In this document: in pieces, positions 682 to 61,830 of the stretch | Layout: every line of letters starts with the position of its first letter | How positions within the stretch are numbered: the first letter of the stretch is position 1 | DNA from: Anaerolineae bacterium | GTDB lineage: Bacteria > Chloroflexota > Anaerolineae > B4-G1 > SLSP01 | NCBI GenBank assembly: GCA_035347995.1 | Contig: DAOPQD010000005.1 | Coordinates: forward strand, 6,433-70,432 | Reading direction: 5' to 3' | Length of the DNA stretch: 64,000 bases | Notes under the pieces: model-generated | The model's database searches: none | The model's input: only the letters and a program-made list of their open reading frames with translations | What the model was told of the DNA's origin: nothing | Position numbers and translations under genes: made by a program

Positions 682-3600
682 TCACTCCTTGTTCCCGTCA
701 GCACTTTCTACCAGGCGGGAAATCTCCTCTCCCAACTCCTCCATCGAGAAAGGCTTCGTGACAAAACGTGTTGCCCCCAGCGCTTTCATCGCCGATGCGC
801 TCCCATTCCCCGGTTCGGCAAAACCCGTCATCACCACGACGGGGATGTTGGCCGTAGCGGGATGGCGCTTCAATTGTTGGAGCACCTCATAGCCATCCAT
901 GCCCGGCAACTTCAAATCCAGCAAAATCAGGGAGGGTGGCTGCTCCTGAGCCATCCGCAACGCCCGCTCACCGCGGGTCACCGTCCGCACCTGCAAGCCC
1001 TGCGCCCGCAAGGCCGTCCGCAGCAAAGTCAGGGTGTCCCGATCGTCATCTACTACCAGGACCGTGCCTTTGCCGGCCAATACCCGATTCACGACCTGCA
1101 ACAACCGGGCTTCATCCACCGGCTTGGTGAAATAATCCACCGCTCCCAATCGCAGCCCGCGATCCTGATCAAAAACCACTGAGACAATCACCACCGGGAT
1201 GGACGCCGTGTCGGGGTTGCGTTTGAGGAGCTGCAACACCTCAAAACCGTCCAGATCGGGGAGGCGGATATCCAGCGAGATCAAATCCGGCTGTTCCTGA
1301 CGCGCCAGGCGCAACGCCGCTTCCCCCGAGGCGGCCACCACAACCCGATGCCCCTCGTGTTCCAGCGTCAGCCGCAACATTTCGGCGACTTCGGGATCAT
1401 CCTCGACGACAAGAACGGTGGCCGCGGCATTCGCCCCCAATCCGGCAGGCGGACGCCCCACCGGCGCCGTCGCTTCCCCTTCCGCCAGCGGGAACGTCAC
1501 GGTGAAAATACTGCCCTCTCCCGGCTCACTTTCCACAGAAATTTGACCGCCGTGCATCTGCACCAGCGAGGCCGTGATCGCCAACCCCAGACCCGTGCCG
1601 CCCGCCTCCGACACCAGCGGGTTATCCACACGATAGAAGCGTGAGAAAATCCGGCTTTGATCCTCTGGCGAGATGCCAATGCCCGTATCGGCTACGGCGA
1701 TATGGAACATCTCCTCCCGGACATAAGCATAGATGGCGATCTCGCCGCCCAGCGGCGTGTATTTGAAGGCGTTTCCCACCAAGTTGGTGAGAATTTGCAC
1801 CATCCGATCGGGATCCCCGTAAGCCAACGGCAGGCCCTCCGGCAGAACGGTGCGGATCTGCAGCCCCTTCTCTTCAATCTTGGGCGTGAGTGTGACCGCC
1901 ACCTGCCGGATCAGCTCCGCCATGTCTACCGGCTGACAATGAAGCTCCACCTTGCCGCCCTCAATACGCGACATATCCAGCAAATCGTTCACCAGGCTCG
2001 TCAACCGATCGGTGTTGTTGCGAATGATGTTCAGGAATTGCACCTGCATGTCGGTGAGCGGGCCGGTAGCCCCCATCAACAGCAGATCCACATATCCCTT
2101 CACCGAGGTCATCGGCGTGCGCAACTCATGCGAAACCGTGGAGACAAACTCGCTCTTGGCGCGGTCGGCCTCCACCTCCGCCGTGATGTCGCGGAAGGCC
2201 GCCACGACCCCCAGGAACTCGCGGATCGGCGAGATGACCGGCGATAAATGCATACTCACGACTTGCCGCCCCAGTTCCAACCGTTCCGAGAGGAAATCAC
2301 CGCTCTGGTAGCTGCCCGGTTCCGCCTCCCACACCGCGATCTGCTCCAGCCAGCCGCGCACTTTGTCGCCGTAGAGCCCCAATACCTCACTCAGCGAACG
2401 TCCCATCGCCTGCGCGCGATTCAGCGTGAGGATGCGCTCCGCCGCCGCATTGAAGAGGATGATCTTGCCGCGAGCGTCTGCCACCAGCACGCCGTCGGCG
2501 ATGCCTTCGAGAATGGCCTGACTGCGAGCGGCTTCGTTCTGCTGGGTGCGCAGCATCGAGCCTACCCGCTCCGCCTGCTCGCGGATCAAACGATACAGCT
2601 CCGCGTTGTTGAGTGCATGACCGACCTGCACCGCGGCGGCTTCCACCAGCCGCTGATCCCCAGTGTCAAAGGCGTCCACCTCGGGCGAATGCAGAAAGAT
2701 CACGCCGACGGTTTCATCGCCGGCCGTGATCGGTACCGCAAGCACCGAGCGCGTGTCGTCCTCGATGGGAATCCAGCGCGCATCGAGACGCACGTCGGGC
2801 ACCATCGCCGATTGCCGGTTCGTGAGCACCCACCCCACCAGGCCCTCGTTGCGCTTGTAAGGCGCTCGCACACCCCCTGGCGGGACAGATTTGCCGCCCC
2901 CGACTGAGGCCCGTTGCTGCAAATGGCCCGTGTTCTGATCCAGCAGCAACACGGTCGCCCGCTCGGCGCGCACCGCGTCTTTGAGCATCGAGACCGTCTT
3001 GTGCAGCACCCGATCAATGTCGAGGCTGGCCACCAGGCCGGAGGCAATTTCGTACAGGATCGTCGAGCGGTCACGCTCAGTGCGCAGGCTATTCAGAGCT
3101 TCGGCCAGCTCCGCCGTGCGCTCTTCCACTCGCCGTTCCAGCTCCGCCGAGAAGTTCTTGACCTCCTCGAAGAGCTGCGCATTTTCCACCGCCACCGAGA
3201 TCTGGTCGGCGAGCATCGTCAACGTCGCCACCTGCAGCGGCTCGAGGATCCCGGCCTCGCGGCGTTCCGCGCTGAGCACTCCCACCGTGCGCCCGGCGAC
3301 CTGCAACGGCACAAGCAACGCCGACCCCACCGGCAACGGCCCCGGCGTGAAGCGCGGCTCGCCGCGCACGTCATCCAACGCCAACGGCATGCCGGATTCC
3401 ACGACGGCGCCCACCAGTCCTGCCCCCGGTTCCACCTGCAGCCCCTCGCCCAACAAACTCAGATCATACCCCGAGGACGCGCGCGGCGTCAGCGCCGTCT
3501 GACCCCGAGCTTGCAGGTACACCGTCGCATAATCATAGCCCAACAAATTGGTGACCGCTTGCGCCACCGTGTTGAGGACCAGCGAGAGGTCGAGTTTGGT

Positions 3601-5055
3601 CGTGATCGAGCGGCTCAGTTCGTTGAGCAACATCAGGGTGTTCAGCTGCAGCCGCAGGTTTTCCACCAGCCGGTTGTTGGCGATGACCACCCCAATCTGC
3701 GCCGCGAACAGCTCCAGGACTTCCAGGGAGGCCCGCGTCGGCGCCCGTCCGTCCAGAGGCTCGTCCACCGACAGATAGCCGACGGCATCGCCCTGCGGGC
3801 CATACAGCGGGACCAGCAACAGGTCCTGCGGATGCCACATGCCGGGGCGGCGAGCCTCAGGCAGGGCCACCTCCACCTCAAACACGTCCAGTTCCCCACG
3901 CCAGATGTGTTGCTGTTCAGCCGGAATGTAATAGCAGTTGCCGATGCGGAATTGCTCTTGCAGCAAGCGTGCGATCTGCGACCAGGGGCGGCGCACCTGC
4001 TTGAGGCGCTCCAAATCCACCAGGGGCATCCCTGCCCCGGCGACGCGCCGCACCATCTGCCCCTCAATCACGCTGATGAGCACGATCTCATAGCCGACCG
4101 CTTCTTGTGTGGCATACGCCATGTCCAACAGGGTCTCTTCGAGGGGGCGATCGGAACGCATCGTCCGCGTGGCTTCCAACAACAAGCGCATCTGCTCGGC
4201 GCGTTCCCGCACAAAGTTGCCCCGCAGCAGTTGCTCCTGATAGCGCCGATCGTTTCCCACCGCCAGCGCCGTTTCCGCCGCCAGCCCGTCCATGAAATCA
4301 ATCGCCGCCGGATTCAACGCCTGCGGTTGGCGGCAGTGCAGCACGATGGCCGCTGCCAGCTGCCCCTCATAAAAGACGGGCGACCACAATTCAGTCTGCA
4401 TCCCGGCCTGGTATGCCGGCGTCGGGTGCAGCTCGGCGAGATTGGGAATGTAGCGAGTGACTGGCTGCCGCATGAAAGCCACCAGCGAAGGGTCGGTCTC
4501 AGCATGGGCCAGTAGCTCCTCGTAAGCGGCGGAGGTGGCCTCCGGATAGCCCTGTGCCAGCGCCAGGGTAGGGAGCTCGTCGCGCCAGAGCCAGACCATC
4601 CCCGCATCCGCGTGAGTGAACCGCCGCGCTTCTTCCAGCACCAATTGGAGAATCCGCCCCAGTTCCAGCGTGCTGGCGATCTCCTGGGTGATGCGCCGCA
4701 AGGCGGCTTCCGAGGCAACGCGCCGCGCGACTTCCTGCTCCGCCGCCTGGGCGCGCCGGGCCTGCGCTTGCCATGCCGACGCCAGCGTAGCCCCGGCACC
4801 CGCTAAAAAGGCCGCCACGGCCCAATGCAACCACAGCGTCGGCGTGCGCCACACGGCCAACACCGCCAGCGCGAATAAAATGAGGGCCGTCAGCCAGACA
4901 CGCCGTCGCCCCTGCAGGCCCCCCAACACCGCCGGCAGGATCAACAGGTACAGCCCCACGGGCAGCGCGCCGCTATACAGCAGCAGCAACGCCAGCGCGC
5001 TGCTCAGCAACACCGCGCCCCATCCAGGCTGGAAAGAAGTCAACCGCTCACGCAT
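682..5055 (-). CDS. hybrid sensor histidine kinase with an N-terminal membrane segment, several GAF domains, a PAS domain, HisKA, HATPase_c and two C-terminal receiver domains
   Basis: 1457-aa ORF with a hydrophobic N-terminus, repeated GAF-like blocks, an H-box HELRTPMTSVKGYVDLLL, the N/G boxes (NLVGNAFKYT, DTGIGI, GGTGLGLAI) and two DDPEV/DDDRD receiver segments. Confidence 0.9.
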   Translation of the reverse strand: MRERLTSFQPGWGAVLLSSALALLLLYSGALPVGLYLLILPAVLGGLQGRRRVWLTALILFALAVLAVWRTPTLWLHWAVAAFLAGAGATLASAWQAQARRAQAAEQEVARRVASEAALRRITQEIASTLELGRILQLVLEEARRFTHADAGMVWLWRDELPTLALAQGYPEATSAAYEELLAHAETDPSLVAFMRQPVTRYIPNLAELHPTPAYQAGMQTELWSPVFYEGQLAAAIVLHCRQPQALNPAAIDFMDGLAAETALAVGNDRRYQEQLLRGNFVRERAEQMRLLLEATRTMRSDRPLEETLLDMAYATQEAVGYEIVLISVIEGQMVRRVAGAGMPLVDLERLKQVRRPWSQIARLLQEQFRIGNCYYIPAEQQHIWRGELDVFEVEVALPEARRPGMWHPQDLLLVPLYGPQGDAVGYLSVDEPLDGRAPTRASLEVLELFAAQIGVVIANNRLVENLRLQLNTLMLLNELSRSITTKLDLSLVLNTVAQAVTNLLGYDYATVYLQARGQTALTPRASSGYDLSLLGEGLQVEPGAGLVGAVVESGMPLALDDVRGEPRFTPGPLPVGSALLVPLQVAGRTVGVLSAERREAGILEPLQVATLTMLADQISVAVENAQLFEEVKNFSAELERRVEERTAELAEALNSLRTERDRSTILYEIASGLVASLDIDRVLHKTVSMLKDAVRAERATVLLLDQNTGHLQQRASVGGGKSVPPGGVRAPYKRNEGLVGWVLTNRQSAMVPDVRLDARWIPIEDDTRSVLAVPITAGDETVGVIFLHSPEVDAFDTGDQRLVEAAAVQVGHALNNAELYRLIREQAERVGSMLRTQQNEAARSQAILEGIADGVLVADARGKIILFNAAAERILTLNRAQAMGRSLSEVLGLYGDKVRGWLEQIAVWEAEPGSYQSGDFLSERLELGRQVVSMHLSPVISPIREFLGVVAAFRDITAEVEADRAKSEFVSTVSHELRTPMTSVKGYVDLLLMGATGPLTDMQVQFLNIIRNNTDRLTSLVNDLLDMSRIEGGKVELHCQPVDMAELIRQVAVTLTPKIEEKGLQIRTVLPEGLPLAYGDPDRMVQILTNLVGNAFKYTPLGGEIAIYAYVREEMFHIAVADTGIGISPEDQSRIFSRFYRVDNPLVSEAGGTGLGLAITASLVQMHGGQISVESEPGEGSIFTVTFPLAEGEATAPVGRPPAGLGANAAATVLVVEDDPEVAEMLRLTLEHEGHRVVVAASGEAALRLARQEQPDLISLDIRLPDLDGFEVLQLLKRNPDTASIPVVIVSVVFDQDRGLRLGAVDYFTKPVDEARLLQVVNRVLAGKGTVLVVDDDRDTLTLLRTALRAQGLQVRTVTRGERALRMAQEQPPSLILLDLKLPGMDGYEVLQQLKRHPATANIPVVVMTGFAEPGNGSASAMKALGATRFVTKPFSMEELGEEISRLVESADGNKE

Positions 5056-5123
5056 CTTTTCCCATCAACCCCAAACAATTTTTACGTCCCAATAGGAAAA
5101 TATTGCAAAAAAAGTCCACGGAC

Positions 5124-6017
5124 TTAAGATTTCCGCGCCCGTCGGCGCGCCTCGGCTGCCGCCTCCGTCACCTCACGAATGTCAGTGAAAGGGCCCTCGT
5201 CGGCTGAAAGCATGCCGATCTGCAGGTGCATCAAGGGCACATGCTTTTCCTCACCCTTGCTGTCATGCACCACCAGGTATCCCTGCATTCGGGTCATGAA
5301 GTCGTAGTGCGTCCCCACATTCTCCTCGAAGCGCCGTTCGAGGTCCTCTTTGAGCTGCGGCATGATCGCTTTGCGGGTAATGACAATGAAGTTATCGCCT
5401 CCGATATGACCGATGAAATCCTCCGGATAGCCGAGACGCTCCACGGCCTCATTGAGCACCAGCGCCGTGAAGCGCAAGACCTCCTCGCCCGCCACGAAGC
5501 CATACACCTCGTTAAAGGCGTCCAGCCCCGGAATGCCGATGTAGAGGATGCCCCAATCCGCCAGGCGCAGCAGCTGCCGCAATTGTTGCTCGATCAGCCG
5601 GCCGCTCGGCAGGCCGGTCGTCGGGCTCGTCAGACTCTCGATCTCGGCGCGCTTGATGGTGTTCCGCACGCGCAACCGCAGCTCTTCCACGTCGAAGGGC
5701 TTGGTGATGTAGTCATCGGCACCCAACTCCAGGCCGTGGATTTTGTCGCTGCGTTCGTCTTTCTGCGTGAGGAAAAGAATGGGGATATGACTGGTACGCA
5801 GGTTGGTACGCAGCTGCCGGCAGACTTCATACCCGTCAATGTCGGGAAGCATGATGTCCAGGACGATCACATTGGGGAGCAACTGTCGCGTTGCCTCCAG
5901 CGCATCCTGTCCCCGCGGCGCAACATGCACTTCGTACTCCAGGGATCTGAAATACAGCTGTAACATGTTGGAGATGTCGGGATCGTCTTCCACTACCAGA
6001 ATACGGCCTTCACTCAT
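5124..6017 (-). CDS. response regulator with a C-terminal GGDEF-fold domain that is degenerate (GGDNF instead of GG[DE]EF)
   Basis: 297-aa ORF with an N-terminal receiver (ILVVEDDPDISNML...VLDIMLPDIDGYEV) and C-terminal GGDEF fold (LTSPTTGLPSGRL...HIGGDNFIV...). The catalytic Glu is replaced by Asn. Confidence 0.85.
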   Translation of the reverse strand: MSEGRILVVEDDPDISNMLQLYFRSLEYEVHVAPRGQDALEATRQLLPNVIVLDIMLPDIDGYEVCRQLRTNLRTSHIPILFLTQKDERSDKIHGLELGADDYITKPFDVEELRLRVRNTIKRAEIESLTSPTTGLPSGRLIEQQLRQLLRLADWGILYIGIPGLDAFNEVYGFVAGEEVLRFTALVLNEAVERLGYPEDFIGHIGGDNFIVITRKAIMPQLKEDLERRFEENVGTHYDFMTRMQGYLVVHDSKGEEKHVPLMHLQIGMLSADEGPFTDIREVTEAAAEARRRARKS

Positions 6018-6070: not shown

Positions 6071-7147
6071 TCAGGTTGCTCGCGCTTGGGCCTTGACGCG
6101 CGCGATGGTCGCGTCAGGCAGCACCTGCTCGAAACTGCGCAGAGCCGCCAGGCGGAAGCCGTGCTTTTCCGCCACGGCGTCTATGTCCTCCATCTGCTCA
6201 AGCGTTAAGTCTTTGCCCAAAGAATAGTCCTCGAAGCGCCCTTCCAGCGCCAGGGTCATGGTCTCTGCCATACATCCAAAGGTCAACGTCGGCGGCAGCC
6301 CATAATCGAAGCCGAAATCTACCGCGCCGGGCACTTCCGCCAATCCGCCATCGAAGACAAGCACGTCATCTCGCGCCTGCGCCACCTGCCAGGAGACGTC
6401 CCTCGGACGCGAAACATCACAGACCACCGCTCCGCGACGCAAGTGCTCCGGACGCACCAGGTTCCCCCCCGCGCTGGTCACGGTGATCACCACTTCCGCC
6501 TGTTGAATATCGGCGACTTCTGTAGAAAGCCGCACCTCAGGCGCCCCGCCGGCCCGCAGTCGCTCGCCGAGGGGCTCCAGGTGTCGCAACTCACGTCCGA
6601 CCAACAGCACCGAGCCGAATTCACGCGCCAGACTTTGCGTCACGATGCTACCGATAGCCCCGGCCGCGCCGACTACCGCCAGGGTCACGGCGGCGGGATC
6701 GTACTCCATCCGCCGCACCGCCTCACGGGTCGCGCGAATGGCCAGCGCCGCGGTGTAGCTGTCGCCGGAAGTGACGGCCAGATCCAGAGCGCGGGCGATC
6801 GTCACCCCGCCATCTCCCACGACCGAGGTGTAAGCCCCTAACCCCAGGATTTGCGCCCCCAGGCGCTCCGCCATCCGTCCCGCGGCGATGATTTTACGGT
6901 ACACCTCCGTCGGCGGCAGCTGCAACATCCGCTGCACGGTGTAGGGCACGGCGAGCAGCCACCCCTCGATCTCTTTGCCCGTCGCCGCCGAGCGCACCCC
7001 CGTGACATGGGAGATGTACACCGGCGGCCAAAAACGCGAGGCAAAATCAATCACCGGCTCAGGCAACATCCGCCCCAGCAGGGGATACTTGCGTGCCACA
7101 TCGCGTTTGGCCGACAGCGGATGAATGATAAAGGCAAACGCATCCAT
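6071..7147 (-). CDS. NAD(P)-binding oxidoreductase of the cyanobacterial acyl-ACP reductase (AAR) family
   Basis: 358-aa ORF co-linear with cyanobacterial AAR. The N-terminus AFIIHPLS matches AAR GLIGHLTS. The motif AVVGAAGAIGS matches AAR VAVVGATGDIGSAV. The C-terminus FGCMAETMTLALEGR...EQMEDIDAVAEKHGF matches AAR FACFAEAMLLEFEGW...EKMEAIGEASVRHGF. A Cys equivalent to the AAR catalytic Cys is not obvious by eye. Confidence 0.7.
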   Translation of the reverse strand: MDAFAFIIHPLSAKRDVARKYPLLGRMLPEPVIDFASRFWPPVYISHVTGVRSAATGKEIEGWLLAVPYTVQRMLQLPPTEVYRKIIAAGRMAERLGAQILGLGAYTSVVGDGGVTIARALDLAVTSGDSYTAALAIRATREAVRRMEYDPAAVTLAVVGAAGAIGSIVTQSLAREFGSVLLVGRELRHLEPLGERLRAGGAPEVRLSTEVADIQQAEVVITVTSAGGNLVRPEHLRRGAVVCDVSRPRDVSWQVAQARDDVLVFDGGLAEVPGAVDFGFDYGLPPTLTFGCMAETMTLALEGRFEDYSLGKDLTLEQMEDIDAVAEKHGFRLAALRSFEQVLPDATIARVKAQARAT

Positions 7148-7161
7148 AAATTTTTCGTGTT

Positions 7162-8415
7162 TTAACGAGGATACAATCTTGGATGTGCGATCTCCGGATT
7201 CGGCAGCTTCCAGTGATCGCTGTCCTCGTAAGTAATATTCCGATCAATGACCCGGCGTTCAGGCGAGGCAAACAGGATCACATCGGACTCAATCATCCGC
7301 GCCGGGAAGATGACCATCCCCGAGCCAATGCGGACATGATGTCCTACCGCCGAACCGATCACCGACAGGCCGGTGTTTTCCAGGCGTCCGCCGAAGTGCG
7401 ATCGAATGGGAATAGTTGGGACCAGGTTGAAATCGGTGAAGGTGTTGCCCGCGCCGATGAACGTCTCCCGTCCCACGACGCACATCTGCAAGCAGGTATT
7501 CTGCGCCACCATGCAATCTTCCATCAGCACCGTTTCGAACAGCGAGGCGCGAAAAGGCAGGAACGTCCCGTCGCCGACGACGCTCAACAGCATCTGACAC
7601 CCGTGAGAGATATTCACATTGTCACCCAACACGCAGTTGGCGATCATGGCTCCCGCCCCAATCGTGACGTTGTTACCGATGATCGTCGGCCCCTGGATGA
7701 TTGCCGTAGGATCAATCTGACAATTCTTACCCACCTGCACCAGGGCAGAGCTCCCCAGCAGTTGCCGGCGCTCGAGCATCGCCTGCCACAACAAGCGCAG
7801 GTTCAGCCCCAAGTCCTTTTCCAGAGAGCGCTCGAAACGCGCCCCAATGGAAAAAATGCCAAACATGACGTTGGCAAAAAGAATGTGGATCCAATGCTCG
7901 ATAGAAAGGAACGCCTTGGTAGGCAGCTGATACACCAAATCGCCGTAGACGTTGGACATGTGAGTCGGCACATGGTAGTATCCCGCTTCTCGCGGCTCGG
8001 TGTGCATCACCAGCGGGCGCACCACCGGCTCGATGCCGTAGGGATAATACCACAAGTCCGCCACATACACGTTGCCCTGACGCCGAATGCCCCGCTGCAA
8101 ATAGATCGCATGTTGCGAAATGGCGGGGTCATCCAGCTCGAAGGCCACCTGACAGGCTTTCCCCAGGCTACGCGCCTGCACGATAAATTCGTCAATGAAG
8201 GGCTGATCGAAATAAAGATTCTCACGGTACACGAGCGTCTCGACGCGGTCATGCCCGATCTCGGAAAGAGAATCCACCTCCAACTCTTCGGTCGTGTAGG
8301 GTACCAGGATGTCCCGTTGATGAAGCCACAACGGCTTACACAGCACGCTCAGATCGCGCGCGGGCTCGTTGAACGGCGGTATTTTGCGTTTTTCGCGCAG
8401 GATGATTTTACGCAC
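7162..8415 (-). CDS. left-handed beta-helix (hexapeptide-repeat) acyltransferase-like protein with an ~230-aa N-terminal domain of unclear type; GTG start
   Basis: 417-aa ORF with a C-terminal run of hexapeptide repeats (IDPTAIIQGPTIIGNNVTIGAGAMIANCVLGDNVNISHGC...IGAGNTF...IGSAVGHHVRIGSGMVI). It lies 14 nt upstream of the AAR-like gene. Confidence 0.65.
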   Translation of the reverse strand: MRKIILREKRKIPPFNEPARDLSVLCKPLWLHQRDILVPYTTEELEVDSLSEIGHDRVETLVYRENLYFDQPFIDEFIVQARSLGKACQVAFELDDPAISQHAIYLQRGIRRQGNVYVADLWYYPYGIEPVVRPLVMHTEPREAGYYHVPTHMSNVYGDLVYQLPTKAFLSIEHWIHILFANVMFGIFSIGARFERSLEKDLGLNLRLLWQAMLERRQLLGSSALVQVGKNCQIDPTAIIQGPTIIGNNVTIGAGAMIANCVLGDNVNISHGCQMLLSVVGDGTFLPFRASLFETVLMEDCMVAQNTCLQMCVVGRETFIGAGNTFTDFNLVPTIPIRSHFGGRLENTGLSVIGSAVGHHVRIGSGMVIFPARMIESDVILFASPERRVIDRNITYEDSDHWKLPNPEIAHPRLYPR

Positions 8416-8432
8416 CGAGCTGCTTCCTTATC

Positions 8433-8467
8433 CACCCAGCGTTACGGAACCCACCCAGCGTTACGGA
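8433..8467. repeat. tandem direct repeat, two copies of CACCCAGCGTTACGGA with a 19-bp period, immediately upstream of the RBS of the LbH gene
   Basis: Read directly in the sequence: tccacccagcgttacggaa|cccacccagcgttacggac. Confidence 0.6.
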
Positions 8468-8470
8468 CGA

Positions 8471-9136
8471 TTACACCCCAGGCGTTCGCCCAATCTGGAA
8501 CGTGCAGGCGGGGTCCCCTAAGGCGATGCACGTCACTTCTGCAACCTCGAAGGGCTTGCCCCCACTTGCCCAATATAGCGTCTCCGCCAGCAATCCTGTC
8601 ATCAGAGAACAGACCGGATAGCTCGCCCGCCAGCCCCAACAAAAGCCGCACTGCTTCATGATCCAGAAGTAGCTCTCCGCCGTCTCCGACAATTGCACCT
8701 GCTGCGCCGCATAACGGTTGAGGATCTCCGCCAGGACCTCCAGGCTCAGGCGCACCCGAAAAGTGAGCGGCAGAATACGGAACATCACGTCGGCGACGCT
8801 CAGCAAGCCGCCAAAATCCTGGACGCCATACCGAAACGCGACACGCCCCGCGCGCAGGCAGAGCTGTTGCCCGCTGTGCGCCCCGTGCAATTCATCTATC
8901 GCCGTGAGCAGCTGCGCCACCGCCGTAAACGACAAGGCCGGCTCGAAGTTGGTCGGCAATGGCCGCTCGCCCAGCTCCGGAAGACGGGCCGCCGTCAACA
9001 CGGCCTTCAGGCTGTTAGCTCCGAGCACTTCCTCCAGCGACAGGAGCAAAATGCGTACGAATTTATTGGGAAAGTACCCCTCCGCGTGCGGGTCGTCACC
9101 CGCGAGCTCCGCCTCAAACCGCTGCGCCATCGTCAC
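8471..9136 (-). CDS. V4R (4-vinyl reductase) domain protein
   Basis: 221-aa ORF with a C-terminal CGFCWGW...C...C cysteine pattern and overall composition typical of V4R hydrocarbon-binding domains. Its start overlaps the stop of the hydrolase gene (9133-9136), which indicates operon linkage. Confidence 0.6.
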   Translation of the reverse strand: MTMAQRFEAELAGDDPHAEGYFPNKFVRILLLSLEEVLGANSLKAVLTAARLPELGERPLPTNFEPALSFTAVAQLLTAIDELHGAHSGQQLCLRAGRVAFRYGVQDFGGLLSVADVMFRILPLTFRVRLSLEVLAEILNRYAAQQVQLSETAESYFWIMKQCGFCWGWRASYPVCSLMTGLLAETLYWASGGKPFEVAEVTCIALGDPACTFQIGRTPGV

Positions 9137-10011: not shown

Positions 10012-10551
10012 TTACTCTTCGGTCTGATCCATGACCTCGAGGATTGAATACAGGAGTTCCAGCAACACTTGCTTGACGCTCTCACGGTCGCGCGCCACGC
10101 ACGGGACGACCTTGACGCCCGGCTCAATCTTGAGCACGATGCGCAAGTCATCAGCCGGCCAGGCATCCGGTATGTCCTGCTTGTTGGCGGCGACGATGTA
10201 CGGCACAGGCGAATAGGCGCGGAAAGTGTCTAAAATGCGCTGCGCCTCGCGGAAGGTCTCCGGCCGGGTGCTGTCCACCATCACCACAAAGCCCAGCATC
10301 CCCTCAGAGAGGATTTCCCACATAAAATCGAAACGGCGCTGTCCCGGCGTGCCAAACAAATAGAGGATCAATTCCTCATCAATGGTAATGCGACCGAAGT
10401 CCATCGCCACCGTCGTCGCGTCCTTAATACGCTCGGCCCGGCTGGAGATCTTCCTTTCGGTCGAAACGACATCAATTTCACTCACACTCTGGATGAATTC
10501 GGTCTTCCCAGAAGCAAAGGGCCCCGTCACGACGATCTTCAGTGTTTGCAT
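10012..10551 (-). CDS. small Ras-like GTPase of the MglA-like/Arf-like prokaryotic family
   Basis: 179-aa ORF with P-loop GPFASGKT, G3 region LFGTPGQRRF (the usual Asp is not present) and G4 NKQD. Confidence 0.8.
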   Translation of the reverse strand: MQTLKIVVTGPFASGKTEFIQSVSEIDVVSTERKISSRAERIKDATTVAMDFGRITIDEELILYLFGTPGQRRFDFMWEILSEGMLGFVVMVDSTRPETFREAQRILDTFRAYSPVPYIVAANKQDIPDAWPADDLRIVLKIEPGVKVVPCVARDRESVKQVLLELLYSILEVMDQTEE

Positions 10552-10554
10552 GGA

Positions 10555-11415
10555 CTAGAGCTCCCGAATGCGATCAATGAGCTTGTGAATCAAGCTGCGC
10601 TTGACGTCAGGGCGACGCGCCCCCATCATGGCCTCAGGACGTTCCTTCTCCTCCGGCCGAACGCTCCGCGGCTCCCCGACCGTGGCTTCAGCCATCTGCC
10701 TCGGCGGACGAATGATTTCGACCAACCCCGCTTGCAGCAGGCCATAGACGATCTTGCGAATCTGAAATTCGCTCATGTTGTTGTACTGTGCGATCTGCCG
10801 GATGGCGTTGCGCGGATTGACGAAGGAAATCACCCGCCACTCCTCCACAGTCAGGTTCACATCCCGCAACGGGGTGTTGGGCTTCTCGGCAAATTTCAGC
10901 GCCACGTCGAGGGAAGGGATCTCTTCCTGCAGCCGTTCCCACTCTTTGAGCCGCCGGCTCCCCTCCATAATGACGTTTTCCAGGGCAATCGAGCTCACCA
11001 GCTTGCCCTGAATGGGCAACTCGTTCGGCTCGAAGCGGAACGTCCCCGCATTCCAGGAAAACACGCTGTAAGCCGTGTCCGTGATGTGTTGGCGCACGAG
11101 CTGCACCAGTTCCTGCTGCTGGACATGTCCCGACTGGATAAGCATCAGCGCCACATCCCGGTCGGGTTTGCTACCCATGTTGGTCGCAATAACGCGCGCC
11201 TGCTCCGCCGTCAACTTACCCGCTTTTTGTAGCAAAGGCAACAACGCGAGTTCCTGTCCATCCGCCGCCGCGTACACTAACGCTCCCTCGCGGAAACACA
11301 GGTAGGCCTTGCTTTGCGCACCCTCCAGGTAGAGCGTCCCCGTTTTACGGGCCAGGTTGATCAGGTTCAGCAGTTGTGTGATGCCGAAATCCTTCAAGTT
11401 GCCTTTTAGCGCCAT
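10555..11415 (-). CDS. DUF4388 domain protein
   Basis: 286-aa ORF whose N-terminus LKGNLKDFGITQLLNLINLARKTGTLYLEG matches the DUF4388 signature. This family is frequently encoded next to MglA-like GTPases. Confidence 0.65.
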   Translation of the reverse strand: MALKGNLKDFGITQLLNLINLARKTGTLYLEGAQSKAYLCFREGALVYAAADGQELALLPLLQKAGKLTAEQARVIATNMGSKPDRDVALMLIQSGHVQQQELVQLVRQHITDTAYSVFSWNAGTFRFEPNELPIQGKLVSSIALENVIMEGSRRLKEWERLQEEIPSLDVALKFAEKPNTPLRDVNLTVEEWRVISFVNPRNAIRQIAQYNNMSEFQIRKIVYGLLQAGLVEIIRPPRQMAEATVGEPRSVRPEEKERPEAMMGARRPDVKRSLIHKLIDRIREL

Positions 11416-11480: not shown

Positions 11481-11508
11481 ATTATAACTTGCTTCTAAGA
11501 GTCAGCAA
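11481..11508 (-). promoter_or_regulatory. candidate sigma-70-type promoter for the 11.4-kb minus-strand gene array (TTGCTG, 16-nt spacer, TATAAT on the minus strand), overlapping the recN stop
   Basis: Minus-strand reading ttgctgactcttagaagcaagttataatgg, followed by a ~60-nt 5' UTR containing AAGGACGG before the ATG at 11415. Confidence 0.35.
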
Positions 11509-13330
11509 ACCCGCCTTTATGCGCGGCCGCCTGCGCCAGAAGTTCTTCCGCGCCCTGCCGCGAGGCCGCGCCCTGCGTCCCCAACATCTGCGCCAGTTCC
11601 TCCAACCGCGACGCCGTTTCCAAACGCCGCACCGTGGTCACCGTGCGCCCTTCCACCACGGCCTTTTGCACGCCGTAATGGGCATCGCCAAACGCGGCCA
11701 GCTGCGGCAGATGGGTGATGCACAACACCTGATGCGCCGGCTGTGCGTCCCCCGTGGCCGCTCCCGTTGGCCGGGTCAGCCGCCAGAGCTTGGCGCCGAC
11801 AATGGCCCCAACGCGCCCGCCGATGCCCTGATCAATCTCGTCGAAAATCAACGTCGGTGTGCGATCGGCGCGCGAAAGCACCGTCTTGAGCGCCAGCATG
11901 AGCCGCGCCGTCTCTCCCCCCGAAGCAATGCGCGCCAGCGGCTTGAGTCCCTCGCCTACATTCGGCGCGATCAGGAATTCCACCTGCTCCACCCCCGTGA
12001 GATCGAAAGCGGCGGACGATACGGGAGTGTCGTCCTGGACCTCGACGTCGTCTGCCGTGACCCACACCTCCGCCGGCAGCGCCGTTTCCAGCGGCAGACC
12101 GGCGGGGTCCGTCTCACAGCGGAACGCGACGCCAAACCGCGTCCCCCCCATGCGCAGATCGGCCAGTTCCCCCTCAACGCCGGCAGCCAGCCGTCGCGCG
12201 GCATCTCGTCGCGCCGCCGACAGCGTCCCACACAGTTCCGCCGCCGCCACACTGCACGCCGCCGCCGCTTCTTCCAGCCCGGCGATGCGCTCGTCGCTGT
12301 GCTCCAGAGCTTCCAGCTCCGCCGCGATTCTGGTCGCGTAGGCCAGAATCTCAGGGATGTCGCCGCCGTATTTGCGCCGCAGGCTGTGAATCAGCGCCAG
12401 GCGCTCCTCGACCTGCTGCAGCCGGCGCGGGTTGAACTCGATGCGGCCCAGGTATTCCCGCAGGGAGCGCGCCAGATCCTCGAGCTGATACACTGCTTCC
12501 AGCCAGGCGCTCTCCTGAGAGCTCAGCGAGGGATCCACCCGCACCAGCGCGGCCATCTCCCGTTGCCCCTGGCCCAACAGATCAAGCACCGCCGGCGACT
12601 CTTCCGCGCCCTCCTCGAGCAGCGTCAGCAACGTCGCCGTCAGCGACGCCAGCTGCTCCGCATTCGCCAGGCGAACGCGCTCTGCCGCAAGCTCGTCCTC
12701 CTCGCCGATTTGCAACGCCGCGGCCGTGAGCTCCTGCAGCTGGAAGCGCAACAGGTCCTGCCGCTGCATCCGGCTGCTTTCGTCCTGGCGCAGCGCTTGC
12801 AACTCCCGCCGTACTGCCTGCAGGCGTCGGACCGCCTCAGCGACGCGCTCCCGCAATTCCCCGAGATCGGCAAAGCGATCCAGCAGCTGCACATGCTCCG
12901 CAACCCGCAGGAGGCTCAGATGCTCGCTCTGCCCGTGAATGTCCACCAACTGCTCGCCAAGCTGGCGCAACAACGCCGCCGCGACCACCGAGCCGTTGAC
13001 ACGCGCGACCGAACGGCCATTGTCGCGGAGCTCGCGACTCAGCCACAGCACATCGGCGGCCTCGCTATCCAGCCCCTCTTGCTCGAGGAGCGGCGCGAGC
13101 CGCGCCTGCTGCCCGGCGTCGAGCTGAAACATCCCTTCGACCAAGGCGCGCGTGGCGCCCTCGCGGATCGCCGTCGCATCGGCGCGCCCGCCCAGCAACA
13201 GCATCACCGCATCAATCACGATGGATTTACCGGCGCCGGTCTCCCCTGTGAGAATATTGAAACCCGGCTCCAGGTTCAAATGCAATTCGTCAATGATGGC
13301 AAAATCTCGAATATGCAGCTCTTTTAACAC
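11495..13330 (-). CDS. recN: DNA repair protein RecN
   Basis: 611-aa ORF MLKELHIRDFAIIDELHLNLEPGFNILTGETGAGKSIVIDA... with a long coiled-coil and a C-terminal ABC signature. Confidence 0.95.
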   Translation of the reverse strand: MLKELHIRDFAIIDELHLNLEPGFNILTGETGAGKSIVIDAVMLLLGGRADATAIREGATRALVEGMFQLDAGQQARLAPLLEQEGLDSEAADVLWLSRELRDNGRSVARVNGSVVAAALLRQLGEQLVDIHGQSEHLSLLRVAEHVQLLDRFADLGELRERVAEAVRRLQAVRRELQALRQDESSRMQRQDLLRFQLQELTAAALQIGEEDELAAERVRLANAEQLASLTATLLTLLEEGAEESPAVLDLLGQGQREMAALVRVDPSLSSQESAWLEAVYQLEDLARSLREYLGRIEFNPRRLQQVEERLALIHSLRRKYGGDIPEILAYATRIAAELEALEHSDERIAGLEEAAAACSVAAAELCGTLSAARRDAARRLAAGVEGELADLRMGGTRFGVAFRCETDPAGLPLETALPAEVWVTADDVEVQDDTPVSSAAFDLTGVEQVEFLIAPNVGEGLKPLARIASGGETARLMLALKTVLSRADRTPTLIFDEIDQGIGGRVGAIVGAKLWRLTRPTGAATGDAQPAHQVLCITHLPQLAAFGDAHYGVQKAVVEGRTVTTVRRLETASRLEELAQMLGTQGAASRQGAEELLAQAAAHKGGFADS

Positions 13331-13969: not shown

Positions 13970-15271
13970 GTGGAACACAGTTCCCGTATTGCGGGATTTT
14001 ATAATCTGAGCGGCGCTGAACGTCTGCAGCTGGTTGCCGACTGGGCCGCGCTGAATGCCGAAGAGCAAGCCGTGCTCTCCGGCATTTTGGGCCTGGATGT
14101 GGAACACGGCGCGGCCATGATCGAGAACGTTATCGGGATCTACAGCCTGCCACTCGGCATCGCCGCCAATTTCACGGTGAACGGCCGCGACGTGCTGGTG
14201 CCCATGGTGATCGAGGAGCCGTCGGTCGTCGCGGGGGCCTCGCTGGCTGCCCGACTGGCGCGCGCCGGCGGTGGCTTCAGCGCAAGCACCGCCGAGCCGG
14301 TGATGATCGGACAGCTGCAGGTCATGGGCCTTGACGATCTCGAGGCCGCGCAGGCGCGCCTTCTGGCGGAGAAAGCGGCACTCCTGGCCCTGGCCCATGC
14401 CGTGGACCCTGTCCTCGCGCAGCTGGGCGGCGGCGCGCAAGACCTGGAAGTCCGCCTCCTGCCGGAGACGCCCGCCGGTCCCATGCTCATCGTGCACCTG
14501 CTCTACGACGTGCGCGACGCGATGGGCGCCAATGCTGTCAACACGGCCTGTGAACGCCTCGCGCCGGAAATCGCTCGGCTTACCGGCGGGAGAGTCTTCC
14601 TGCGCATTCTGAGCAACCTGGCGGATCGTCGCCTGGCGCGCGCCGGGGTCGTCATCCCCGAAAGCGCGCTGGCGTTTGATCACTTCAGCGGCGAAACGGT
14701 CGCCCTCGGCATCGAACAGGCCTGGGCCTTCGCTGCCGCCGATCCCTACCGCGCCGCGACGCACAACAAAGGCATCATGAATGGCGTGGATGCGGTCGTG
14801 CTCGCTACGGGGAACGACTGGCGCGCCATCGAAGCGGGGGCCCATGCCTACGCCGCCCGCGAGGGGCGCTACACGAGCCTCAGCACGTGGCAGCGCGATG
14901 GGAAGGGCAACCTCGTCGGCAGCCTGGAGCTGCCCCTGGCGTTGGGCATCGTCGGCGGGGCGACGCGCGTGCATCCGACGGCGCGGGTCGCGCTCAAAAT
15001 CCTGGGGGTGCAGACTGCCCGCGAGCTGGCGGAGATCGTCGCCAGCGTGGGACTGGCGCAGAATCTCGCCGCGCTCCGCGCCCTGGCGACAGAGGGCATC
15101 CAGAAGGGACACATGAGCCTGCACGCCCGGCAGGTCGCCATGGCAGCCGGCGCTACGGGAGAAGCCATCGAGCGCGTCGCCGAGGCCATGATCGCCGAGG
15201 GCGTTATCCGCGTGGATCGCGCCACGGCCTGGTTAGAGCATTTTTACCGCGAGGAGCACGGCGCCGCGTGA
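13970..15271 (+). CDS. hydroxymethylglutaryl-CoA reductase, class II; GTG start
   Basis: 433-aa ORF with ...ENVIGIYSLPLGIAANFTVNGRDVLVPMVIEEPSVVAGAS... typical of class II HMGR. Confidence 0.9.
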   Translation: MEHSSRIAGFYNLSGAERLQLVADWAALNAEEQAVLSGILGLDVEHGAAMIENVIGIYSLPLGIAANFTVNGRDVLVPMVIEEPSVVAGASLAARLARAGGGFSASTAEPVMIGQLQVMGLDDLEAAQARLLAEKAALLALAHAVDPVLAQLGGGAQDLEVRLLPETPAGPMLIVHLLYDVRDAMGANAVNTACERLAPEIARLTGGRVFLRILSNLADRRLARAGVVIPESALAFDHFSGETVALGIEQAWAFAAADPYRAATHNKGIMNGVDAVVLATGNDWRAIEAGAHAYAAREGRYTSLSTWQRDGKGNLVGSLELPLALGIVGGATRVHPTARVALKILGVQTARELAEIVASVGLAQNLAALRALATEGIQKGHMSLHARQVAMAAGATGEAIERVAEAMIAEGVIRVDRATAWLEHFYREEHGAA

Positions 15272-15319
15272 GGCGTCGCACCGTGTCCGGCGCGCCGAAA
15301 CTGGAATCAGGAGGTCATT

Positions 15320-16384
15320 GTGGCAGAACGTTGGACCATGCATCCACAACGCCCGGTGGGAATTGTCGGTTATGGCTCGTACGTGCCCATGTACCGCCTG
15401 CCCAATGCGGAAATCAGCCGCATCTGGGGCAGCGGCGATGAGGGGGGGCCCATCAAGGAAAAGGCCGTCGCCGGATTGGATGAGGACACAATCACCATTG
15501 CGATCGAGGCCGCGCGCAACGCTTTGAGTCGCGCCGGCATTGCTCCCGAAGACATCCGCGCGGTCTGGATAGGCAGCGAATCGCATCCCTACGCCGTCAA
15601 ACCGAGTTCGACGGTCGTGGCTGAAGCGCTCGGCACGTCCCCCTATCACCTGGCGGCGGACCTGGAATTCGCCTGCAAGGCCGGCACCGAGGCGCTGCAG
15701 GCGGCCATCGGCCTGGTCGGCTCTGGCATGGCGCGCTACGCCCTGGCCATCGGCGCGGACACGGCGCAAGGGCGGCCCGGCGATGCGCTGGAATACACCG
15801 CTGCTTCCGGCGGGACCGCCTTCATCGTAGGGCCGGCGGAGGAGGCGCTCGCGGTGCTGCGCGGGTCGCTCTCTTTCGTCACCGATACGCCCGACTTCTG
15901 GCGGCGCGCCTATCAACATTATCCCAGCCACGGCGGACGCTTTACCGGCGAACCGGCTTACTTCCACCACATTCAATCCGCTGCTGAGGCGCTGCTGGAG
16001 GAGATGGGATTGGGGCCCCAGGATTTCACCTACGCCATCTTCCATCAGCCCAACGTCAAATTCCCGGAGCGGGTAGGCAAGCGCCTGGGCTTCACCAAAG
16101 AGCAGCTGCAGCCGGGTCTGATCAGCAACCGCATTGGGAACACCTACGCCGGCGCGGCGGTGACGGGCCTCTCGGCGACGCTGGATGTCGCCAAAGCGGG
16201 GGATCGCATCCTCATGGTCAGCTTCGGCTCCGGCGCCGGCTCCGACGCTTTCGTGTGGGACGTCACGGGGGCGCTGGAAGAGCGGCGACATCACGCGCCG
16301 CTGGTACAAGACTATATCGCCCGCCGCGTGGAAATTGACTACGGTCTGTATGTCCGCTATCGCGGCAAACTGCTGGTGAAGTAG
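15320..16384 (+). CDS. HMG-CoA synthase, archaeal type (~350 aa)
   Basis: 354-aa [28 protein letters not shown]... Confidence 0.85.
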
Positions 16385-16393
16385 GAGGCACGG

Positions 16394-17551
16394 ATGCGCG
16401 ACGTAGCCATTATCGGCATCGGCCAGACGCCGGTTCAAGAACATTGGCCCATCAGCCTGCGGCATCTGGCGCTGGAAGCGGCGCTGAACGCGCTCCACGA
16501 TGCCAACATCGAAAAAGTGGACGCCATCTATGTCGGCAATATGCTTTCGGGTGAAATCACCGGCCAGGAGCATCTCGGCGCGTTGCTCGCCGACGAGCTG
16601 GGACAGTCGGGCGCTGAGGCTTTGAAGGTAGAAGCGGCGTGCGCTTCGGGCGCGGCGGCGCTGCGCGTGGGGATGATGGCGGTCGCCAGCGGGATGAACG
16701 ATCTGGTGTTGGTGACCGGCGTGGAGAAGATGACGGACACGTCGGGCCGTGAGACGACGGCGGCGCTGGCCATGGCGGCAGACGCGGAATATGAAGTCGC
16801 GCAGGGCGTGTCGTTTGTGAGCCTCAACGCGCTGTTGATGCGCCGCTACATGTACGAATACGGCTGGGAACGTAAGGATTTCGCCAATTTCGTGGTGACG
16901 GCGCACGCCAACGGGATGAAAAATCCCAACGCGATGTTTCACATGAAGGTGACGCCGGAACAATATGCGCATTGCGCCACCATCGCCGATCCGGTGGGCC
17001 TGCTCGACGCTTCGCCGGTCTGCGATGGAGCTGCGGCGGTAGTCCTGGCGCCCGCGGAGTACGCGCGCACCCTCAGCCCGGCGCCGATCCGCATTCGTGG
17101 GTCAGGCATCGCTACAGCGCCGATCGCCGTCCACGACCGCAAGGATCCGCTGGCGCTGGAAGCAGCGCGCCTGTCGGTCAAGCGCGCTTATGAAATGGCG
17201 AAGGTGAAGCCGCAGGACATCAGCTTCTTCGAACTGCACGACGCCTTCACCATCATGTCGGCGCTGAGCCTGGAGGCTGCCGGCTTCGCCGAGCGGGGGC
17301 AGGGCGTGCGGTTGGCGCTCGATGGGGAGATCACGCTGGAGGGGCGGATTCCCATCGCCACCATGGGCGGGCTGAAGTCGCGGGGGCATCCTGTCGGTGC
17401 GACGGGCATGTATCAGGTCGTGGAGGCCGTCCTGCAATTGCGGGGGTTGGCGGGGAAAAATCAGCTGCACCATCCGCGCCTGGGCATGACCCAGAACATC
17501 GGCGGCAGCGGCGCCACCATCATCACGACGATTTTGGAAGCGATGGGGTGA
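16394..17551 (+). CDS. acetoacetyl-CoA thiolase, archaeal-type thiolase
   Basis: 385-aa ORF VAIIGIGQTPVQEHWP...ACASGAAALR... Confidence 0.85.
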   Translation: MRDVAIIGIGQTPVQEHWPISLRHLALEAALNALHDANIEKVDAIYVGNMLSGEITGQEHLGALLADELGQSGAEALKVEAACASGAAALRVGMMAVASGMNDLVLVTGVEKMTDTSGRETTAALAMAADAEYEVAQGVSFVSLNALLMRRYMYEYGWERKDFANFVVTAHANGMKNPNAMFHMKVTPEQYAHCATIADPVGLLDASPVCDGAAAVVLAPAEYARTLSPAPIRIRGSGIATAPIAVHDRKDPLALEAARLSVKRAYEMAKVKPQDISFFELHDAFTIMSALSLEAAGFAERGQGVRLALDGEITLEGRIPIATMGGLKSRGHPVGATGMYQVVEAVLQLRGLAGKNQLHHPRLGMTQNIGGSGATIITTILEAMG

Positions 17552-17646
17552 GCAGGAATGCGTAACGAGTGATGCGTCAAAGGGAACAGCCCTACACGGC
17601 GCGCATTATGTTTGACAATGCTTGATTCTCAGAAAGGAGAGCTCTC

Positions 17647-18057
17647 ATGGAAGGAAAAGTTGCTCACGATTGGCGGTTGAAGGGTCAGCGGTATCGTCTG
17701 GAGGGAGAAGAGTGCCCACATTGCAAGGCCAAGATTTTCCCGCCGCGGGACATCTGCCCGGAATGCAAGCAGCCGGCAAAGGAACCCTATCGCCTGAGCG
17801 GGCGCGGCGAGGTTTACACTTTCAGCACGCTCAACAGCGCGCCTGAGGGCTTCGAGGGGTTTGTTCCCTACACCGTGGCGCTGATTAAGCTGGAGGAAGG
17901 CCCGATGATCACGGCTCAGCTCACCGATGTGGCGCCAGAGGATGTGCGCATCGGGATGCCGGTGGAGATGGTCACCCGCAAGTTGCGCGCGCAAGGCGAC
18001 GAAGGCACGATCATCTACGGCTACAAGTTCCGCCCGGCGGGATGGGGGCACGTCTAG
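17647..18057 (+). CDS. DUF35 family OB-fold/zinc-ribbon protein (scaffold of the thiolase/HMG-CoA synthase complex)
   Basis: 136-aa ORF with a CPHC...CPEC zinc ribbon followed by an OB-fold region. Confidence 0.8.
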   Translation: MEGKVAHDWRLKGQRYRLEGEECPHCKAKIFPPRDICPECKQPAKEPYRLSGRGEVYTFSTLNSAPEGFEGFVPYTVALIKLEEGPMITAQLTDVAPEDVRIGMPVEMVTRKLRAQGDEGTIIYGYKFRPAGWGHV

Positions 18058-57371: not shown

Positions 57372-57401
57372 TCTACCGGGTGACTTACACAGGAGTACGC
57401 G

Positions 57402-61078: not shown

Positions 61079-61830
61079 TAAAAGTTCGCCGTGGGCCACA
61101 ACCGGAAGGATTTCATGAACGAGCGATTAGCTGGCAAACTCGCTTTGAGCAAGAGCGAGAAAGTAATCCTTCGCTTACCATCACAAGATTCTGGGACAGA
61201 ATCCGAAATGAAATCCGCGCAGATGCAGAGCACCTATATCATGTTTCGCATGGGAAATGTGCTTTCTGTGAAAGTTACATGGCTGATGTATCTACCCCAC
61301 ACATAGAACACTATCGCCCCAAGAGCAAATTTCCGGAGCTGGCATTCGTTTGGGACAACTGGTTACTGTCATGCCAATGCTGCAATGGCAAAAAATGGGG
61401 ACACTTTCCAATATGTGAAGATCTGCCATGTTTGATAGATCCTGGAAATGAAGATCCAGAAATGCACATAACCTTCGAAGGATACACTCCAATCTCAAAA
61501 ACACCGCGTGGCGAAAAAACGATTGAATTGCTCGGGTTAAGACGAAGTCCCCTGGAAGACGAACGTAGCCGATGGTTAAACTATGTCAGCATATTATTGC
61601 TGAGCTGGTGTAATACTAAAGATTCAATGCTAAAAGACGAAATACGCGAGCTGCTTATCTGGGCCATGCAAGATGAGGCGCCATACGCCGCAATGACACG
61701 CTGCTTCTTGCAAAAGTATGCCCCGCGATTGGCTTCAAAAGCACATCCCCCTGTAACCTGCCCCAGGCCCTTGATGCGTATTCAAGAGCTAGTTGAACAA
61801 TGGAGTCATGAATTCGTTGGACTCGAGTGA
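61075..61830 (+). CDS. ptuB: Septu-type PtuB-like HNH endonuclease
   Basis: CAFCESYMADVSTPHIEHYRPKS...NWLLSCQCCNGKKWGHFP (C-x2-C, EH, N-W, C-x2-C-N). It overlaps the ptuA stop. Confidence 0.7.
   Translation: MIKVRRGPQPEGFHERAISWQTRFEQERESNPSLTITRFWDRIRNEIRADAEHLYHVSHGKCAFCESYMADVSTPHIEHYRPKSKFPELAFVWDNWLLSCQCCNGKKWGHFPICEDLPCLIDPGNEDPEMHITFEGYTPISKTPRGEKTIELLGLRRSPLEDERSRWLNYVSILLLSWCNTKDSMLKDEIRELLIWAMQDEAPYAAMTRCFLQKYAPRLASKAHPPVTCPRPLMRIQELVEQWSHEFVGLE

Follow-up and report, generated by a model that had tools for sequence, protein, structure and literature searches.

A thioester reductase homologue and a GlmU-shaped β-helix protein paired within a conserved Anaerolineae signalling cassette

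What might a predicted reductase and a β-helix protein do side by side in the midst of signalling genes? This question is raised by a 64,000-nucleotide stretch of an Anaerolineae bacterium genome (GenBank assembly GCA_035347995.1, contig DAOPQD010000005.1, positions 6,433 to 70,432 of the forward strand), hereafter called the window. Two minus-strand open reading frames (ORFs), encoding proteins of 358 aa (start ATG) and 417 aa (start GTG) and separated by an intergenic gap of 14 bp, sit between PATAN and small GTPase genes (10012-11415) and the genes of a response regulator and a hybrid histidine kinase (682-6017), as the first-pass annotation of this DNA had described (Table 1). Both ORFs are real genes, because their products have hundreds of close homologues, annotated from metagenome-assembled genomes (MAGs) of Anaerolineae/Chloroflexota. 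Moreover, their GC content at third codon positions (0.72-0.76) is in line with the other window genes, and AAGGAAG precedes the GTG start of the 417-aa ORF. Plus-strand ORFs overlapping the pair were dismissed as shadow ORFs of a 61% GC genome. Our answer is tentative and held at less than even confidence: the pair may form a metabolite-handling sub-module, coupled to signalling, of a conserved Anaerolineae signalling cassette.

The 358-aa protein, which we term AARL, is, as judged from its sequence, a competent thioester reductase of the AAR/PigE-N superfamily (COG5322-like). It displays end-to-end homology of both domains, the cysteine nucleophile, and every sequence feature for AAR/PigE-type catalysis. 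AARL matches the cyanobacterial acyl-ACP (acyl carrier protein) reductase AAR in NCBIfam (TIGR04058, 98.9 bits, E=3.6e-28) and in a PDB sequence search (6jzq, E=1.2e-22, residues 30-336 on 24-339), which bears out the co-linearity with AAR that had been proposed. The N-terminal half of PigE gives the higher scores (NF053554, 208.4 bits, 1.9e-61, residues 4-353 on profile positions 2-355 of 837; PDB 4ppm, 6.2e-36). Pfam recognizes the Rossmann part alone, labelled “Shikimate_DH”; the corresponding NCBI name “shikimate dehydrogenase” was rejected, as that model gives 20.8 bits and covers only the Rossmann part.

The catalytic cysteine of this superfamily is kept. Here and below, active-site equivalences are taken from profile alignments with residues counted by hand. 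In the PDB alignments, the AAR segment FACFAEAM, which contains Cys294, aligns with TFGC(292)MAETM of AARL, and PigE Cys296 also falls on Cys292. The acyl-enzyme intermediate sits on precisely these residues in AAR and PigE (PMC8341465; bioRxiv 10.1101/2024.10.28.620694). Cys292 and the glycines G160, G163, and G166 of the dinucleotide-binding motif are invariant in 23 homologues (alignment A4); in the related loci, a cysteine occupies the position of Cys292 in 70 of 70 cases, and the GxxGxxG glycines are likewise kept. AARL probably uses the same acyl-enzyme, ping-pong thioester reduction as AAR. The first-pass annotation had suspected a different chemistry, as it took VEHCFDID to be the catalytic cysteine region of AAR. 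This segment does align with a cysteine-free stretch of AARL (AEVPGAVDF), but its cysteine is Cys271, which is not catalytic, and the suspicion falls away. Among the observations named in advance as speaking against that proposal, a conserved catalytic cysteine was indeed found, whereas relatedness to generic shikimate dehydrogenases is limited to the 20.8 bits given above and the linkage to the neighbouring β-helix gene is conserved rather than absent.

On these scores AARL is nearer to PigE-N than to AAR, yet it belongs to neither curated family, because it lies far under both cut-offs (98.9 versus 449.7 bits for TIGR04058; 208.4 versus 850 bits for NF053554), lacks the fused C-terminal class-III aminotransferase domain (the protein stops at 358), and has no gene for an aldehyde-deformylating oxygenase (ADO) in the window. 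As had been stated before, no ADO is encoded nearby: PF11266 has no match in the ~55 window ORFs scanned, and a weak tblastn probe was negative too.

The adjacent 417-aa protein is predicted to adopt the two-domain fold of ST0452 and GlmU, without the nucleoside triphosphate (NTP) glycine loop and without the GlmU-type catalytic histidine. Its AlphaFold2 model, based on an alignment of 36 diverse sequences, reaches a predicted local distance difference test score (pLDDT) of 91.3 and a predicted template modelling (TM) score of 0.91; an earlier model from a shallow alignment (A1, at least 64% identity) with pLDDT 49 was discarded. In Foldseek searches, ST0452 is the best match (5z09/5z0a/2ggo, TM 0.60-0.67, E=1e-13) and the match spans both domains, followed by GlmU, GMPPA/B, and VTC1 as the next structural neighbours. 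ST0452 is also the top match of the family profile (7.7e-17), with N-termini that align weakly. Hexapeptide-model matches are confined to residues ~220-400 (Pfam Hexapep PF00132, 1.2e-12), confirming the left-handed β-helix (LbH) of the first-pass annotation. The LpxA/LpxD sub-type assigned to it does not hold: neither is among the 50 best Foldseek matches listed for the model, and the protein remains far under the LpxD and LpxA cut-offs (TIGR01853, 32.7 versus 242.5 bits; PRK05289, 25 versus 226 bits). Since the LbH protein is of the GlmU/ST0452 type and not of the LpxA/LpxD type, the statement that both families act on acyl-ACP is unsupported for this gene. In full, that version combined an AAR homologue of altered chemistry, devoid of the catalytic cysteine, with an LpxA/LpxD-like acyl-ACP acyltransferase. 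The cysteine-free stretch facing VEHCFDID and the weak LpxD/LpxA hexapeptide matches fit it, but the position of Cys294 on the conserved Cys292 and the whole-protein ST0452/GlmU fold leave it essentially excluded.

The departures from the GlmU pattern affect both active sites. In the profile alignment, the NTP-binding loop of ST0452, ILAAGSGERL, faces ILREKRKIPPF, and the G-x-G-(T/E)-R signature is absent from the N-terminus of the LbH protein (ILREKRKIPPFNEP versus ILAAGSGERLEPIT in ST0452); Pfam finds no NTP_transferase match in this protein. In the C-terminal region, the acetyltransferase histidine (His308 of ST0452, His363 of GlmU), which we take to be the general base, is not kept and is replaced by the invariant Phe288, as part of an LPFRA segment without variation in alignment A1. 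The protein remains under the cut-offs of the GlmU/ST0452-type models (TIGR03992, 40.8 versus 292.1 bits; TIGR01173, 34 versus 366.9 bits). At E<=0.001, clustering at 50% leaves 1073 representatives of the family, and its full-length members extend to identities as low as 23-30%; a curated model was looked for and none was found, and a search for fusions with other domains found none. JGI annotations name relatives NDP-sugar pyrophosphorylase or acetyltransferase. Taken as a whole, the LbH protein represents a divergent branch of the GlmU/ST0452 fold that is as yet uncharacterised.

The neighbourhood of the pair is conserved. A genome scan retrieved 486 species with an LbH relative, and the best 80 loci all derive from Anaerolineae/Thermoflexales except for one “Archaeoglobales” contig. 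Context data come from MAGs throughout, with flanks viewed up to 10 kb, and gene presence was called by tblastn of the window proteins against related loci, which may overlook genes that evolve fast, V4R among them. The genes follow each other in the conserved order PATAN, small GTPase, α/β hydrolase, V4R, LbH, reductase, REC-GGDEF-like regulator, and hybrid kinase, with a large kinase following the regulator in most related loci (counts in Table 1). The search for reductase-LbH pairs in other genomes, as proposed in the first-pass annotation, gave a stronger result than expected, and the pairs lie inside this cassette. Best conserved are the GTPase (67-93% identity), the LbH protein (56-88%), and the regulator. 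The reductase gene has been lost several times, the LbH gene never. LbH is the constant enzyme-like member of the cassette, and the reductase, hydrolase, and V4R are frequent but dispensable. V4R is absent in Thermoflexus, where PATAN, GTPase, hydrolase, LbH, and reductase are present. At 52% LbH identity, the entire cassette is intact (L171), and a locus at 44% identity (L172) retains LbH, reductase, regulator, and a giant kinase without PATAN, GTPase, hydrolase, and V4R.

Two records fall outside the expected taxonomy. The locus assigned to “Archaeoglobales archaeon” (L053) carries a typical Anaerolineae cassette, and a 59%-identical LbH protein (P0452) is deposited as “Fodinibius sp.”; both are probably mis-binned MAG contigs. 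As for regulatory DNA, a promoter and terminator scan between the cassette genes gave nothing convincing. Upstream of the LbH gene, the V4R-LbH intergenic region (8432-8467) contains a perfect 17-nt direct repeat, CCACCCAGCGTTACGGA, in two copies at a spacing of 19 nt, overlapping a promoter-like match that is itself weak. The repeat was dropped as a regulatory element, as it is not conserved in related loci.

A second view of the family is provided by an LbH clade ~30% identical to the window protein. A metagenome scan for this clade, using patterns from alignment A5 since the broader alignment A3 was too diverse, yielded 80 loci whose neighbouring ORFs were clustered blind. A 380-aa NAD_binding_4 protein is the neighbour seen most often; it lies at position -1 in 21 of the 25 clustered loci (PF07993, 5.6e-35) and also matches the thioester-reductase domain model TIGR01746 (1.8e-32). 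A seven-transmembrane histidine kinase occupies position +1 in 16 of the 19 loci having that kinase family within four genes, response regulators follow at +2/+3, and most gaps measure less than 130 bp; on a stricter count the kinase is present in 14/32 loci. AAR-like, GTPase, PATAN, and V4R genes are found in none of the 80 loci. A homologue search with a profile of distant members returned the same Anaerolineae clade only. Functional coupling finds its best support here: LbH, a thioester reductase, and a two-component system come together a second time, with a reductase and a kinase that are not homologous to those of the Anaerolineae cassette. An unrelated reductase in the same neighbourhood speaks for coupling and against inherited synteny. 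In a separate case, an LbH relative of 29% identity (L086, 8423-9529) adjoins a weak Ald_deCOase-like (ADO-family) gene and MatE, HTTM, and polyketide synthase (PKS) genes, which sets the family in different surroundings, of lipid or polyketide type.

How could the pair be coupled to its neighbours? The reductase would load an acyl thioester, either acyl-ACP or acyl-coenzyme A (CoA), onto Cys292, and the bound acyl group would be reduced to the aldehyde by NAD(P)H. Its relatives AAR, PigE, and GluTR each pass their aldehyde on to a partner (PMC8341465). By analogy AARL might do the same, and the LbH protein is the obvious candidate partner. It would bind or convert the acyl or aldehyde metabolite, either as an acyltransferase of a non-canonical kind or as a subunit that binds the ligand, and the metabolite could be coupled to the GTPase switch and to the regulator and its kinase as a signal, a cofactor, or a regulated output. 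The core role of LbH must lie with the signalling genes, because it persists where the reductase is lost, and reductase, hydrolase, and V4R look like accessory ligand-making or ligand-sensing parts. From gene context, the link between metabolite and signalling is plausible.

Several observations weigh against this proposal. The reductase is missing beside LbH in 10 of 73 genomes, at no fewer than four places (>=4) on a neighbour-joining tree; therefore the core function of LbH cannot strictly need it. Without a canonical NTP loop and catalytic histidine, the LbH protein may not be an enzyme at all, and neither protein attains any curated family cut-off. In the distant clade, a stricter count finds a gene of the short-chain dehydrogenase/reductase type upstream in only 19 of 43 evaluable loci, and a minority of these upstream genes resemble HpnA-type sugar epimerases rather than thioester reductases. 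Other distant LbH members occur in unrelated contexts with radical SAM, terpene-cyclase-like, PKS/ADO-like, or fatty-acid desaturase/patatin genes. Finally, apart from the domain identities, the proposal draws entirely on gene context in MAGs.

The same degenerate motifs could reflect an LbH protein that has no catalytic role and serves the GTPase and two-component switch as a regulatory or scaffold subunit, a pseudo-nucleotidyltransferase like GMPPA or eIF2B γ/ε, with the reductase optional and its chemistry not central. We regard this as somewhat unlikely. The loss of the glycine loop, Phe288 at the His308 position, and the GMPPA/B complexes among the structural neighbours agree with it, as do the unusually high conservation of LbH (56-88%), its company with GTPase and PATAN in 60 of 60 loci, and its survival of reductase loss. 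However, L172 combines LbH, reductase, regulator, and kinase without any GTPase, and a GTPase is found in none of the 80 distant loci. Further, Asp328 is invariant at an active-site position of ST0452, which suggests a retained ligand or catalytic site, and some LbH N-acetyltransferases function without a histidine base.

Alternatively, the enzymes could be the regulated output, with reductase, hydrolase, and LbH modifying an envelope lipid or sugar under control of kinase, regulator, and GTPase. The LbH fold family consists mostly of sugar-nucleotide and cell-envelope enzymes, the JGI labels of the relatives point the same way, and some distant relatives adjoin HpnA-like epimerase, desaturase, and patatin genes. 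Such an output is unlikely in view of a regulator that has no DNA-binding output domain and only a degenerate GGDEF, of a cassette in which the domain scan finds no glycosyltransferase, flippase, or lipid-synthesis genes, and of the missing nucleotidyltransferase signature. That the adjacency is merely synteny inherited within one class, with the pair not functionally coupled to the signalling genes, appears very unlikely: although the best 80 loci belong to Anaerolineae/Thermoflexales, barring the one probably mis-binned contig, and single members can be lost, gene order and strand persist in hundreds of species (486 relatives) where the proteins are 52-60% identical, the gaps are short or overlapping, and the analogous reductase-LbH-kinase-regulator set of the distant clade has a non-homologous reductase and kinase. 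The metabolite-handling sub-module remains the reading that we put forward. In a wider version of it, which we consider distinctly unlikely, members of the nucleotidyltransferase-like/LbH family would team up with a thioester reductase, which may belong to one or the other of two unrelated types, in a widespread but hitherto unrecognised accessory module of two-component systems that makes or senses an acyl-derived aldehyde as an intracellular signal; in Anaerolineae this would also be wired to the PATAN/MglA-like GTPase, on which LbH might act much as eIF2B does on its own GTPase.

Table 1. Cassette genes and predicted functional residues in the window, with their occurrence in related loci.
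Feature	Coordinates	Strand	Basis or remark	Position relative to LbH gene; presence in related loci
PATAN/DUF4388 protein, 286 aa	10555..11415	-	PF14332 9.5e-30	upstream, same strand; 60/60 loci
Small Ras-like GTPase, 179 aa	10012..10551	-	PF03029 1.3e-20; Ras 2.2e-08	upstream, same strand; 60/60 loci
α/β-fold hydrolase, 261 aa	9133..9918	-	PF00561 2.6e-30	upstream, same strand; 57/60 loci
V4R-domain protein, 221 aa; domain predicted to be small-molecule/redox-sensing	8471..9136	-	PF02830 2e-09	upstream, same strand; 56/60 loci
LbH protein, 417 aa: nucleotidyltransferase-like N-domain (~aa 1-215) and left-handed β-helix (~aa 220-400)	7162..8415	-	AlphaFold2 model, Foldseek, Pfam Hexapep	
Phe288 of LbH protein, at position of ST0452 acetyltransferase His308	7552..7554	-	profile alignment, hand count	
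Asp328 of LbH protein, aligned to ST0452 Asn331	7432..7434	-	one of only 3 residues invariant across the whole LbH family	
AARL, AAR/PigE-N-type NAD(P)H-dependent thioester reductase homologue, 358 aa	6071..7147	-	NCBIfam and PDB matches	immediately downstream; 63/73 species-level Anaerolineae/Thermoflexales genomes
Gly160-x-x-Gly163-x-x-Gly166 dinucleotide-binding motif of AARL (VGAAGAIGS)	6650..6670	-	aligned to AAR VGATGDIGS; glycines invariant	
Cys292 codon of AARL, predicted acyl-enzyme nucleophile	6272..6274	-	aligned to AAR Cys294 and PigE Cys296; invariant	
Response regulator, REC and degenerate GGDEF (GGDNF)	5124..6017	-	PF00072 1.4e-29; PF00990 2.2e-10	downstream; 66/68 loci
Hybrid histidine kinase, 1457 aa: GAF x4, PAS, HisKA, HATPase_c, REC x2	682..5055	-	domain scan	
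Stand-alone receiver domain protein, 125 aa	301..678	-	PF00072 2e-30; directly after kinase	

Among the signalling neighbours, the GTPase has MglA as its closest solved relative (PDB 3t12, 6.7e-09), and no match to the GTPase-activating protein MglB/Roadblock is found among the cassette proteins or the called genes of six related loci (L001-L005 and L171). The GGDEF domain of the regulator is probably not a working diguanylate cyclase, because its motif reads GGDNF and relatives have mostly GGDDF or GGDNF: in 73 related loci, GGDDF occurs in 45 and GGDEF in 2. The stand-alone receiver downstream of the hybrid kinase may extend the phosphorelay. Directly upstream of the cassette lies a 611-aa SMC_N/AAA_23 ATPase gene (11495-13330, minus strand), which is kept there in closer relatives only and is absent from Thermoflexus and deeper branches.

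Elsewhere in the window, a low-GC island on the plus strand (59669-61830, GC 0.49 versus ~0.62) encodes PtuA (469 aa, PADLOC 5.7e-90) and PtuB (251 aa, 6.3e-45); together they make up a Septu anti-phage defence system that was probably gained by horizontal transfer. Divergent mevalonate-pathway genes (13970-18057, plus strand) encode HMG-CoA reductase, an HMG-CoA-synthase-like protein, a thiolase, and a DUF35/ChsH2 OB-fold protein, an archaeal-type thiolase/HMGCS/DUF35 set with the same neighbours in one related locus (L004). Genes of a xanthine-dehydrogenase-type molybdoenzyme (54191-59648, plus strand; FAD/2Fe-2S and molybdenum cofactor subunits) enclose that of a 576-aa DUF6909 protein (2.7e-217).

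The class Anaerolineae is abundant in sediments, in digesters, and in wastewater sludge, and to our knowledge its signalling is almost wholly unexplored. Confirmation would make the cassette a concrete case of two paired enzymes that produce a metabolite and are hard-wired to a two-component system and a small GTPase, and would give a first context to a large uncharacterised protein family. Members of this family now carry the wrong names “multidrug transporter”, “shikimate dehydrogenase”, or “GlmU-like”. The AAR/PigE family of thioester reductases would then also reach beyond the biosynthesis of hydrocarbons and prodigiosin.

Comparison with known systems places each component. AARL and AAR (TIGR04058; PDB 6JZQ/6JZU) have a two-domain layout in common over ~310 residues and share the catalytic cysteine (292 and 294, respectively) and the GxxGxxG motif for NAD(P)H; AARL differs by its score (99 bits versus the cut-off of 450), its LbH neighbour, the lack of an ADO in the window, and its Chloroflexota host. 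Its best-scoring relative is the N-terminal thioester-reductase domain of PigE from the prodigiosin MAP pathway (NF053554; 4PPM), whose Cys296 has its equivalent in AARL. In contrast to PigE, AARL stands alone, with no class-III aminotransferase domain and no pig genes nearby. With ST0452 of Sulfolobus tokodaii and GlmU, bifunctional sugar-1-phosphate nucleotidylyltransferase/acetyltransferases, the LbH protein shares the nucleotidyltransferase-like domain, the linker helix, and the left-handed β-helix, and its C-terminal region aligns through the acetyltransferase active-site stretch. Identity is, however, 14%, and His308 and Asn331 are exchanged for Phe288 and Asp328. The non-catalytic regulatory subunits GMPPA and eIF2B γ/ε show the same architecture and degenerate catalytic motifs. 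eIF2B acts on a GTPase, and in Anaerolineae a GTPase gene is always near the LbH gene; the relation is one of fold only, the GTPase link is absent in L172 and the distant clade, and the comparison is an analogy. LpxA and LpxD share the hexapeptide left-handed β-helix but differ from the LbH protein in the N-terminal domain and overall fold.

At the level of the cassette, a PATAN protein beside an MglA-like GTPase is a known occasional association (PMC4316618), from which the Anaerolineae cassette differs by the lack of MglB/Roadblock. In actinobacterial conservons, too, a small GTPase and a histidine kinase occur together, at times joined by an enzyme. The hydrolase-V4R-LbH-reductase insert is mentioned neither in the survey of PMC4316618 nor elsewhere in the literature found. 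The cassette is a new variant of small-GTPase/two-component modules, and its reductase is a new member of a known superfamily.

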